From the NCBI RefSeq assembly GCF_003334315.1, contig NZ_QOWR01000017.1: DNA of 64,000 bases. One strand, given 5' to 3'. The notes beneath the pieces were generated by a model. That model searched no databases. It worked only from the letters and a program-made list of their open reading frames with translations, and was not told the origin of the DNA. The translations under genes were made by a program, and so were the position numbers. The stretch is from Escherichia coli. Lineage in GTDB: Bacteria; Pseudomonadota; Gammaproteobacteria; Enterobacterales; Enterobacteriaceae. Below, in pieces: positions 32,916-64,000 of this stretch. The stretch's first letter is position 1. Each line of letters starts with the position of its first letter.

Positions 32916-33035
32916 GAACGCCCTGCATACACCCCTCACTCTATATCACTCTCACAAATTCGCTCAAATAATAAACAATAAACTCTGTTTTTTGATCTCA
33001 CCCGGTAAAGTCGCCTATCTTTTCAGCAACAAAAC

Positions 33036-33049
33036 TTGATTAACATCAA
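33036..33049. promoter_or_regulatory. FNR box (TTGAT-N4-ATCAA) in ndh promoter
   Basis: Perfect consensus ttgattaacatcaa ~150 bp upstream of the ndh start; established that ndh is FNR-repressed. Confidence 0.75.
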
Positions 33050-33185
33050 TTTTGGTATGACCAATGCACCATTCATGTTATTCTCAATAGCGAAGAACAT
33101 TTTCATTGCTGTAACCTGTTGTTAATTAAGAGCTATGTTAATAACCATTAATTAACAATTGGTTAATAAATTTAAGGGGGTCACG

Positions 33186-34490
33186 TTGACTACGCCATTG
33201 AAAAAGATTGTGATTGTCGGCGGCGGTGCTGGTGGGCTGGAAATGGCAACACAGCTGGGGCATAAGCTGGGACGCAAGAAAAAAGCCAAAATTACGCTGG
33301 TCGATCGTAACCACAGCCACCTGTGGAAACCGCTGCTGCACGAAGTGGCGACTGGCTCGCTTGATGAAGGCGTCGATGCGTTGAGCTATCTGGCCCATGC
33401 GCGCAATCATGGTTTCCAGTTCCAGCTGGGTTCCGTCATTGATATTGATCGTGAAGCGAAAACAATCACTATTGCAGAACTGCGCGACGAGAAAGGTGAA
33501 CTGCTGGTTCCGGAACGTAAAATCGCCTATGACACCCTGGTAATGGCGCTGGGTAGCACCTCTAACGATTTCAATACGCCAGGTGTCAAAGAGAACTGCA
33601 TTTTCCTCGATAACCCGCACCAGGCGCGTCGCTTCCACCAGGAGATGCTGAATTTGTTCCTGAAATACTCCGCCAACCTGGGCGCGAATGGCAAAGTGAA
33701 CATTGCGATTGTCGGCGGCGGCGCGACGGGTGTAGAACTCTCCGCTGAATTGCACAACGCGGTCAAGCAACTGCACAGCTACGGTTACAAAGGCCTGACC
33801 AACGAAGCCCTGAACGTAACGCTGGTAGAAGCGGGAGAACGTATTTTGCCTGCGTTACCGCCACGTATCTCTGCTGCGGCCCACAACGAGCTAACGAAAC
33901 TTGGCGTTCGCGTGCTGACGCAAACCATGGTCACCAGTGCTGATGAAGGCGGCCTGCACACTAAAGATGGCGAATATATTGAGGCTGATCTGATGGTATG
34001 GGCAGCCGGGATCAAAGCGCCAGACTTCCTGAAAGATATCGGTGGTCTTGAAACTAACCGTATCAACCAGCTGGTGGTGGAACCGACGCTGCAAACCACC
34101 CGCGATCCAGACATTTACGCTATTGGCGACTGCGCGTCATGCCCGCGTCCGGAAGGGGGCTTTGTTCCGCCGCGTGCTCAGGCTGCACACCAGATGGCGA
34201 CTTGCGCAATGAACAACATTCTGGCGCAGATGAACGGTAAGCCGCTGAAAAATTATCAGTATAAAGATCATGGTTCGCTGGTATCGCTGTCGAACTTCTC
34301 CACCGTCGGTAGCCTGATGGGTAACCTGACGCGCGGCTCAATGATGATTGAAGGACGAATTGCGCGCTTTGTATATATCTCGCTATACCGAATGCATCAG
34401 ATTGCGCTGCATGGTTACTTTAAAACCGGATTAATGATGCTGGTGGGGAGTATTAACCGCGTTATCCGTCCGCGTTTGAAGTTGCATTAA
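33186..34490 (+). CDS. ndh: Type II NADH dehydrogenase (NDH-2)
   Basis: ORF 33159..34490; start taken at TTG 33186 ([17 protein letters not shown]..., 434 aa); two Rossmann GxGxxG motifs. Confidence 0.94.
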
Positions 34491-35317: not shown

Positions 35318-35950
35318 TTATTTCACCAGTTCGGGCCATAAACGCAAAGTCGTTCCGGCAATCTGCATCAGTTTTTCCAGCGATGCACCTTCGCGTGCGC
35401 TGATCGACATCCCCTGAATAATACAATTAAGGAATTCTGCCAGATGTGTCACGTCACAGTGGGGCGGGATTTCCCCGCGCGCTTGTCGTTGACATAAAAA
35501 CTGCTGCAAAGTGCGCTCTTGCATCGCATGGCGTGATTTCAACGTATTGGCGATATCTCCTGAATCTGGGGAGAGGGTGGTGCAGTTGTTGATCATGAAG
35601 CAGCCTGCCGGGGTGTCTTTGCTGGTAAAGCAGTTGGCGATGGCAGCAAAATAGTCAGCCAGCGCAGACTCCACGCTTTTCTCTTCACAAAACAGCTGTG
35701 CTTCATGCTTAGCGGCAAAACGATCGATATAGCGGTCGAGAACGGCACGAAATAACCCCTCTTTGTTGGTAAATTCCGCGTATAGCGTGGGCGCTTTGGC
35801 TCCGGTCGCTTCGACGAGGTCCGCAAGAGAAGTCGCTTCATAACCGTGTTGCCAGAACAATTTCATGGCCTTATCAAGCGCGGCATCCCTGTCGAACACT
35901 TTTGGGCGGCCACGGCTTTTTTTTACACATTGTGTTGAGTCAGTTGCCAT
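35318..35950 (-). CDS. comR: TetR-family repressor ComR (YcfQ)
   Basis: ORF 35318..36028; start taken at MATDSTQCVKKSRGRPKVF (210 aa); TetR HTH. Confidence 0.9.
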   Translation of the reverse strand: MATDSTQCVKKSRGRPKVFDRDAALDKAMKLFWQHGYEATSLADLVEATGAKAPTLYAEFTNKEGLFRAVLDRYIDRFAAKHEAQLFCEEKSVESALADYFAAIANCFTSKDTPAGCFMINNCTTLSPDSGDIANTLKSRHAMQERTLQQFLCQRQARGEIPPHCDVTHLAEFLNCIIQGMSISAREGASLEKLMQIAGTTLRLWPELVK

Positions 35951-36106
35951 GATGCCGTTGTACCTGGTGACTGTGAATGAAAGGTTATTATAAAAATAAT
36001 CACCTCCGTTCACCAGTCCAGATCCCATAAAAATAATTGCTTTCTATTTAACTGAAATTTAAAGATTTTTAAATTAATTAATGATTGTTATAAAAAATAT
36101 CTTGTA

Positions 36107-36122
36107 TGTGATCCAGATCACA
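36107..36122. promoter_or_regulatory. Perfect CRP-type palindrome TGTGA-N6-TCACA in comR-bhsA intergenic region
   Basis: tgtgatccagatcaca read directly; 69 bp upstream of bhsA ATG; regulator identity is inferred. Confidence 0.5.
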
Positions 36123-36190
36123 TCTATCATTTAGTTATCGATCGTTAAGTAATTGCTTACGACGTCATTCATCTGCATAAGGCCACTATT

Positions 36191-36448
36191 ATGAAAAACG
36201 TAAAAACCCTCATCGCTGCGGCGATTTTAAGCTCCATGTCATTTGCCAGCTTTGCGGCTGTCGAAGTTCAGTCAACGCCAGAAGGCCAACAAAAAGTCGG
36301 TACAATCAGTGCTAACGCGGGGACAAATCTGGGATCGCTGGAAGAGCAGCTGGCGCAAAAAGCGGATGAGATGGGCGCAAAATCTTTCCGTATTACTTCT
36401 GTAACCGGTCCGAATACCCTCCATGGAACAGCAGTAATTTATAAATAA
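36191..36448 (+). CDS. bhsA: Multiple stress resistance protein BhsA (YcfR/ComC), YhcN family
   Basis: 85-aa ORF with signal peptide MKNVKTLIAAAILSSMSFASFA. Confidence 0.93.
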   Translation: MKNVKTLIAAAILSSMSFASFAAVEVQSTPEGQQKVGTISANAGTNLGSLEEQLAQKADEMGAKSFRITSVTGPNTLHGTAVIYK

Positions 36449-62330: not shown

Positions 62331-63581
62331 ATGGAAAGTAAAGTAGTTGTTCCGGCACAAGGCAAGAAGATCACCCTGCAAAACGGCAAACTCAACGTTC
62401 CTGAAAATCCGATTATCCCTTACATTGAAGGTGATGGAATCGGTGTAGATGTAACCCCAGCCATGCTGAAAGTGGTCGACGCTGCAGTCGAGAAAGCCTA
62501 TAAAGGCGAGCGTAAAATCTCCTGGATGGAAATTTACACCGGTGAAAAATCCACACAGGTTTATGGTCAGGATGTCTGGCTGCCTGCTGAAACCCTTGAT
62601 CTGATTCGTGAATATCGCGTTGCCATTAAAGGTCCGCTGACCACTCCTGTTGGTGGCGGTATTCGCTCTCTGAACGTTGCCCTGCGCCAGGAACTGGATC
62701 TCTACATCTGCCTGCGTCCGGTACGTTACTATCAGGGCACTCCAAGCCCGGTTAAACACCCTGAACTGACCGATATGGTTATCTTCCGTGAAAACTCGGA
62801 AGACATTTATGCGGGTATCGAATGGAAAGCAGACTCTGCCGACGCCGAGAAAGTGATTAAATTCCTGCGTGAAGAGATGGGGGTGAAGAAAATTCGCTTC
62901 CCGGAACATTGTGGTATCGGTATTAAGCCGTGTTCGGAAGAAGGCACCAAACGTCTGGTTCGTGCAGCGATCGAATACGCAATTGCTAACGATCGTGACT
63001 CTGTGACTCTGGTGCACAAAGGCAACATCATGAAGTTCACCGAAGGAGCGTTTAAAGACTGGGGCTACCAGCTGGCGCGTGAAGAGTTTGGCGGTGAACT
63101 GATCGACGGTGGCCCGTGGCTGAAAGTTAAAAACCCGAACACTGGCAAAGAGATCGTCATTAAAGACGTGATCGCTGATGCATTCCTGCAACAGATCCTG
63201 CTGCGTCCGGCTGAATATGATGTTATCGCCTGTATGAACCTGAACGGTGACTACATTTCTGACGCCCTGGCAGCGCAGGTTGGCGGTATCGGTATCGCCC
63301 CTGGTGCAAACATCGGTGACGAATGCGCCCTGTTTGAAGCCACCCACGGTACTGCGCCGAAATATGCCGGTCAGGACAAAGTAAATCCAGGCTCTATCAT
63401 CCTCTCCGCTGAGATGATGCTGCGCCATATGGGTTGGACTGAAGCGGCTGACCTGATTGTTAAAGGTATGGAAGGCGCAATCAATGCCAAGACCGTAACT
63501 TATGACTTCGAACGTCTGATGGAAGGCGCTAAGCTGCTGAAATGTTCAGAGTTTGGTGAAGCGATCATCGAAAACATGTAA
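62331..63581 (+). CDS. icd: Isocitrate dehydrogenase (NADP)
   Basis: 416-aa [43 protein letters not shown]...; SD ggagag upstream. Confidence 0.97.
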
Positions 63582-63604
63582 TCTCTCCATGTGTTAAATA
63601 TTGA

Positions 63605-63634
63605 AACGGGCGTATAACACGCCCGTTGTTTTAT
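63605..63634 (+). terminator. Rho-independent terminator after icd
   Basis: aacgggcgtataacacgcccgtt followed by gttttattt. Confidence 0.8.
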
Positions 63635-63796
63635 TTATGTGGATATTATTAATAGCATATCGAGCATATTTATATGAAGCCCATTACTTGAGCCCATATG
63701 GGCATATTTTTATAATGCAACTATTATGTAAACATTTATTTGTTATTTTGCTTTCTCCTGGAGGACACTCTTGACTGCTTTTGAGTAAACTCCATA

Positions 63797-64000
63797 GGTG
63801 ATGCTGCCAACTTACTGATTTAGTGTATGATGGTGTTTTTGAGGTGCTCCAGTGGCTTCTGTTTCTATCAGCTGTCCCTCCTGTTCAGCTACTGACGGGG
63901 TGGTGCGTAACGGCAAAAGCACCGCCGGACATCAGCGCTATCTCTGCTCTCACTGCCGTAAAACATGGCAACTGCAGTTCACTTACACCGCTTCTCAACC
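63797..64000 (+). mobile_element. IS1 insertion sequence, left end (continues beyond window)
   Basis: ggtgatgctgccaacttactgatttagtgtatgatggtg... is the IS1 terminal inverted repeat, followed by the insA start. Confidence 0.93.
63852..64000 (+). CDS. insA: IS1 InsA (transposition repressor), N-terminal part; truncated by window edge
   Basis: GTG start; translation [50 protein letters not shown]... Confidence 0.93.

Follow-up and report, generated by a model that had tools for sequence, protein, structure and literature searches.

The AT-rich DNA that lies between the icd terminator and an IS1 element near the right end of this stretch of DNA (64,000 nucleotides, hereafter the window) is very probably the IS1-cut tail of the convergent gene pair icd and iraM, and the palindrome within it is very probably incidental. 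The stretch is an already-known feature, a fragment of a known gene adjoining a known insertion sequence. Calculation of the local G+C content confirmed the AT-richness of positions 63638-63796, with a G+C fraction of 0.321 compared to 0.515 for the whole window, and only 0.41% of 159-bp windows were equally low, confined to three clusters. The segment comprises the 46-bp tail of the icd-iraM spacer (63638-63683) and the last 113 nt of iraM (63684-63796). The preliminary description was therefore right to place it between the icd terminator and IS1 but not to treat it as lying purely between features, because 113 of its 159 bases are iraM coding sequence on the minus strand. Equal AT-richness occurs elsewhere in the window only at 32956-33218 and 35915-36231, which sit in the universally conserved comR-bhsA-ycfJ-ycfP-ndh region, indicating that short AT-rich DNA is also found in core intergenic DNA. 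The features discussed below are listed in Table 1.

Table 1. Features identified at the right end of the window
Feature	Position	Strand	Description
icd (NADP isocitrate dehydrogenase)	62331..63581	+	Intact 416-aa ORF; annotated as icd in identical records
Convergent icd-iraM spacer	63582..63683		102 bp, 34% G+C; from icd stop to iraM stop
43-nt direct repeat, copy 1 (icd terminator region)	63590..63632	+	Repeat search and empty-site alignment; only copy in the window
icd intrinsic terminator	63605..63637	+	Terminator scan; 9-bp G+C-rich stem, 5-nt loop, T-run
iraM-ymgK cassette, left end	63633..63796		Empty-site E. coli and phage-borne icd' copies are homologous only up to 63632-63636
Partial repeats ATATGAAGCCCAT / ATGGGCATAT	63672-63684 / 63698-63707		Span the iraM stop codon
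iraM 3' fragment (anti-adaptor IraM)	63684..63796	-	Stop codon 63684-63686; codons 72-107 at 63687-63794; 2 nt of codon 71
12-bp palindrome GCCCATATGGGC	63692..63703		iraM codons 101-105, TGC CCA TAT GGG CTC, Cys-Pro-Tyr-Gly-Leu
IS1 left end	63797..64000	+	IRL 63797-63819, exact 23/23; insA from GTG 63852, runs off the window

Megablast was performed using positions 63400-63796 as the query and 5426 complete E. coli genomes as the database. The region was matched in all 5426 genomes, and at least 80% of the query was present in 3818 of them, where iraM is annotated on the other strand next to icd or to the icdC remnant, and the two adjoin without IS1. The query was 100% identical to the icd-iraM DNA of strain 214-4, which carries no prophage at icd, and the iraM-side DNA of the window was 100% identical to the icdC-iraM junction of K-12. 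Ten independent contigs encoding the exact Icd protein of the window all demonstrated the order icd-iraM-ymgK-ymgL-ycgX-bluR with an intact iraM and with neither a prophage nor IS1. The segment is thus conserved at this position in strains with no prophage at icd; the preliminary description had named such conservation as what would refute its reading and show the DNA to be ordinary intergenic, a label that does not fit a segment that is mostly coding. A search of Rfam with positions 63300-64000 yielded no family at threshold and only two sub-threshold chance matches. On a larger scale, positions 39000-63796 (24.8 kb, including mfd, lolE, phoQ, purB, icd, and others) were 99.9% identical to several E. 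coli, e.g., 2018-01-1CC.

The minus-strand translation of positions 63794-63684 was WSLLKSSQECPPGESKITNKCLHNSCIIKICPYGLK followed by a stop codon, identical to residues 72-107 of IraM (the C-terminus of WP_001295666.1), and the DNA of the fragment was 100% identical to iraM of strain 214-4 and of K-12. When iraM of strain 214-4 was projected onto the window, it occupied positions 63684-64007. The NCBIfam model for IraM, NF007393, matched the fragment at profile positions 74-110 (E=1.5e-11, 44 bits); a full-length IraM orthologue reached 172.6 bits, and the fragment stays below the whole-protein cut-off of 121 bits because two-thirds of IraM is missing. Pfam PF11183 (PmrD-like) is recorded on the IraM orthologue. 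The position of the fragment is also that of iraM, convergent with icd (or icdC) and sharing a common terminator with it. Within the window, there was no start codon, no promoter, and no listed ORF in this frame, and no chimeric ORF runs across the iraM/IS1 junction, the iraM frame being without a start codon. Judged from these features, the remnant is a pseudogene fragment of the IraM family and not a functional member. A reading of the minus strand as an integrase C-terminus, which uses a different frame, was ruled out by the annotation and by the correct frame.

On Mg2+ starvation, PhoPQ induces IraM, which sequesters RssB and thereby protects RpoS from ClpXP (PMC10948607). The folded core of IraM comprises residues 1-78, with Leu75 in the RssB contact (PMC10844676), and a break at codon 71 therefore takes away part of the core. 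In an intact locus, iraM is transcribed leftward from a PhoP-dependent promoter located beyond the window, and IraM, by binding RssB, keeps RpoS from being passed to ClpXP. In the window, IS1 has inserted after iraM nt 211 (codon 71), leaving a probably inert 3' fragment without a start codon or promoter. We infer that the break inactivates the gene; the strain is predicted to have neither functional IraM nor a working PhoPQ-IraM route to RpoS stabilisation.

The left-end DNA of the insertion sequence matched IS1-annotated DNA in thousands of records, and the N-terminus of InsA was matched by the zinc-binding domain and transposase models (NF050000 and NF033558). The boundary at 63796/63797 splits iraM codon 71, and the portion of IS1 present in the window is the first 204 bp of the element, the right end lying beyond the window. 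No other IS1 left end was found in the window. The 5' two-thirds of iraM may persist beyond IS1, as after a simple insertion, or may be deleted. If the insertion was simple, the 9 bp AACTCCATA (63788-63796) would recur after the right end of IS1, and AATCCTTGTTGAATGG and the rest of iraM would come next, whereas an IS1-mediated deletion would place unrelated DNA past IS1, e.g., the pdeG upstream region as in strain F5505-C1. IS1 prefers AT-rich targets, and it may have landed in iraM owing to this preference.

The junction of the window itself (121 bp, IRL against iraM) had no contiguous match by megablast in any of the 5426 complete E. coli genomes. In eight ETEC-like genomes (F5505-C1, ATCC 43886, and others), IS1 abuts the same iraM nucleotide as in the window (CTCCATA/GGT; locus L003, 3058/3059), but the element is reversed relative to the window, so that its IRR lies at the junction, and pdeG comes next, indicating a deletion of about 8 kb. 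IS1 is found elsewhere in iraM, or just upstream of it, in strain FDAARGOS_944 and in about 35 others. The iraM region is a recurrent IS1 target. IS1 may have struck the same iraM nucleotide in separate events, once in each orientation, which would point to an IS1 hot spot or to repeated selection for the loss of IraM.

The 3' end of icd in the window is native and not derived from e14: its last 165 nt match the icdC remnant of K-12, at e14 attR, with 100% identity. Downstream of the gene, the terminator forms a hairpin at 63605-63627 followed by the T-run GTTTTATTTA on the plus strand, and it qualifies as an intrinsic terminator. When folded on the minus strand, the hairpin retained a 10-bp stem with a weak U-tract, and the terminator scan of the minus strand called no terminator at the icd hairpin because of this tract. 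In intact loci, iraM transcripts probably stop at this hairpin too, in its minus-strand reading. Strains also differ by a hairpin-loop inversion polymorphism, in which the terminator loop and the inner part of its stem (63610-63622) are exactly inverted: the window and K-12 carry the type GCGTATAACACGC, and B2 strains and XJ6.1 carry its reverse complement GCGTGTTATACGC (locus L006, 6208-6220; locus L105). The last 168 nt of icd (nt 1084-1251) diverged from an empty-site B2 strain by 7.1%, compared to 2.4% elsewhere in icd (about 3-fold); this end of the gene varies in a mosaic manner from strain to strain, a pattern that recombination between icd and its phage-borne copies would be expected to produce, so that its origin cannot be read from divergence counts. 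The icd 3' 26-mer CTGCTGAAATGTTCAGAGTTTGGTGA (63534-63559) was found exactly in 83 loci of many Enterobacterales genera (Citrobacter, Pantoea, Kluyvera, Hafnia, Leclercia, Edwardsiella, and others), often twice per genome and often preceding a phage-21-type integrase, indicating that the icd attachment site and phage-borne icd' copies are widespread.

The iraM fragment is the left end of a larger accessory unit. From the icd stop to ycgX (iraM-ymgK-ymgL-ycgX, 1.75 kb), the G+C fraction was 0.34, compared to 0.50 for icd and 0.485 for bluR. The 43-nt repeat at the icd terminator recurs outside the window, 864 bp further right and just before ymgL, with 84% identity between the copies (locus L001, 3191-3233 and 4055-4097). 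An empty site was detected in 1039 of the 5426 genomes, in which there is one terminator and the DNA found past copy 2, on the ymgL side, adjoins it directly; strain XJ6.1 demonstrated a clean example, and the B2 strain DETEC-P649 carried the same site with an added IS200. Hence iraM and ymgK form an AT-rich cassette of 864 bp that is present in some genomes and absent from others; it begins at 63633, directly past the icd terminator, and the duplicated terminator flanks it. The low G+C content is a property of iraM and its neighbours as parts of such a cassette. Past its terminator, the icd' copy of e14 continues into empty-site-type sequence and not into iraM-side sequence (score of 18 against the empty-site sequence compared to 9.5 ± 1.9 for shuffled sequences, reached by 1 of 2000 shuffles).

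Genes of the iraM family were also found as opposite-strand cargo in the late regions of lambdoid prophages (locus L008, 4001-4324; locus L020, 2501-2836). One paralogue lies immediately downstream of stx2B (stx2AB) in Stx2 phages, and another adjoins a SASA (nanS-p-type) esterase in an ST131 prophage. A phage origin of the whole cassette was not recovered by sequence match, as the iraM coding sequence alone matched phages in the collection (about 72%) and its flanks did not. Horizontally acquired DNA cut by IS1 had been one of the two origins proposed for the segment, and the low G+C content of the locus, its presence/absence distribution, the phage paralogues, and the IS1 at 63797 together support this proposal as the probable one: the DNA of 63638-63796 was probably acquired horizontally.

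The palindrome and the partial repeats were correctly reported by the preliminary description, and the question is whether they do anything. It is very unlikely that they are functional as an operator, as an element of an antisense promoter (TTGAGC-17-TATAAT, 63688-63716), or as a stabilising stem-loop at the 3' end of iraM mRNA. A 10/12 sigma-70-like match (63688-63716) does overlap the palindrome, but promoter-like matches occurred near the level of shuffled sequences (3 compared to 1.6 ± 1.2); when the minus-strand RNA is folded, the partial repeats pair with each other around the stop codon, yet the significant z-score of the fold comes from the terminator hairpin, and no equivalent of the left repeat is present past the Stx2-phage paralogue. 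Perfect 12-bp palindromes numbered 11 in the window, compared to 15.9 ± 4.0 in mononucleotide shuffles and 19.0 ± 4.5 in first-order Markov shuffles, so GCCCATATGGGC is not above chance. The palindrome was then compared in four other iraM-family genes besides the K-12-type gene in the window. It was intact in the 94%-identity iraM allele of FDAARGOS_944, which favours a function, but the symmetry was lost in the other three: the 81%-identity iraM allele (TGT CCA CAT GGT CTC), the ST131 prophage paralogue (TGT CCT TAT GGA CTA), and the Stx2-phage paralogue (TGC CCA TAC GGG CGA). The changes were mostly at third positions, and the motif I-C-P-x-G-x-K was kept in five of five IraM-family proteins, so that genes without the symmetry still encode Cys-Pro-x-Gly. 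Because it occurs at chance frequency, lies inside iraM codons, and loses its symmetry in three of four family genes, the palindrome is very unlikely to be the protein-binding-like site it had been taken for. The conserved object appears to be the peptide, and the palindrome would be a coincidence of codon choice in the K-12-type allele with no function of its own.

The other origin that had been suggested, a phage attachment border, would make the segment a present-day attL or attR arm of e14 or of a phage-21-like prophage, with the palindrome as an integrase, Xis, or IHF site. The location lends it some appeal: prophages often integrate in icd, the icd 3' end is followed by phage-21-type integrases in O157:H7, in ST131, and in many other genera, and divergence between genomes starts exactly past the terminator. 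The match to icdC, however, begins at window position 63417, which places the e14/phage-21 crossover at about 63414-63417, inside icd, some 163-168 bp before the icd stop and at least 220 bp to the left of 63638-63796, in agreement with PMC6379469. No integrase ORF and no second icd 3' end were found in the window, where the icd 3' 26-mer and the terminator are each single-copy. In alignments and by BLAST, neither K-12 e14 attL nor the phage-21-like attL sequences (O157:H7 86-24 and ST131 EC958) resembled the window past the terminator, and their flanks were unlike 63633-63796; phage-borne icd' copies share the icd coding end and the terminator with the window and are unrelated from 63633-63637 on. 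The iraM-side DNA of the window is found in K-12 on the bacterial side of e14 attR, right after the icdC remnant, and the segment is identical in strains without a prophage at icd. Since the palindrome falls within coding sequence as well, an attachment border is rejected as the nature of the segment, and the probability left to it is minimal.

A third possibility extends the iraM explanation and does not exclude it, namely that position 63633 is a fossil phage/host junction, which we regard as conceivable but doubtful. An ancient icd-integrating element would have carried its own icd'-terminator copy together with iraM-ymgK, and a later single deletion would have removed the former icd 3' end along with everything else in the element, the original terminator surviving as the decayed copy 2. 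The 43-nt terminator repeat that brackets the 864-bp cassette and the clean empty site in 1039 genomes are consistent with such a history, although the empty state could instead be the product of a deletion between the two repeats. The TTGTTTTAT boundary at which copy 1 ends is also where the host-like part of the phage-21-like attL stops. The run of the e14 icd' copy into empty-site sequence indicates that an iraM-less arrangement existed when this copy was captured, and e14 has the AT-rich cargo genes ymfD and ymfE directly after its icd' copy. That iraM paralogues are phage cargo genes also argues for the junction, but the matches to phages in the collection cover the iraM coding sequence and not its flanks, and a phage with iraM beside an icd-type attP was not found. 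The higher divergence of the last 168 nt of icd against the empty-site strain points the same way, yet the mosaic structure makes the origin of these nucleotides unreadable. No IraM was detected outside E. coli in the 83 loci found by the icd 26-mer scan of genome contigs, and the only other Escherichia locus from this outgroup scan, that of E. whittamii, has an e14-like junction. A relic of an icd-integrating element is, on balance, an improbable origin for the cassette. The fuller version is the less likely still: 63633 would be the fossil edge of an ancient icd prophage, copy 1 would have given about 70% of E. coli their working icd 3' end and terminator, iraM-ymgK would be the last cargo, and copy 2 would be the original, decayed terminator.

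The reading of the segment as the IS1-cut tail of the icd/iraM pair recovers iraM, a textbook gene of E. coli, here disrupted by a common insertion sequence, and disposes of a false lead, i.e., the palindrome as a binding site and the segment as an attachment border. It also bears on the literature, in which iraM of K-12 has been placed "on the e14 prophage" (PMC4045071). In the K-12 annotation, iraM lies outside attR, past icdC (locus L002, 3268-3591), and it occupies the same site in strains without e14; the statement that iraM is on e14 is corrected by these two observations.

Besides the IS1 insertions in other E. coli, three known systems can be compared with this locus. Compared to iraM of K-12 (ycgW, b1160), codons 72-107 and the 3' flank are 100% identical in nucleotide and amino acid sequence, and the gene is likewise convergent beside the icd 3' end and terminator. 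The K-12 gene is unsplit, whereas iraM of the window is broken at codon 71 by IS1, with only its 3' third in the window; because icd of K-12 harbours e14, iraM there adjoins the icdC remnant, whereas in the window its neighbour is the intact icd. The prophage iraM-family genes (the IraL-type gene and the Stx2-phage gene) belong to the same family, with 62-72% amino acid identity and the C-terminal I-C-P-x-G-x-K retained, but their nucleotide identity of about 70-73% is limited to the coding sequence, their context is a lambdoid late region, and the palindrome is not conserved in them. The attachment site of e14 and phage 21 in icd shares the neighbourhood, the segment being the bacterial DNA immediately to the right of attR in K-12, whereas the crossover itself takes place upstream inside icd, and the attL sides of the prophages are unlike the segment.
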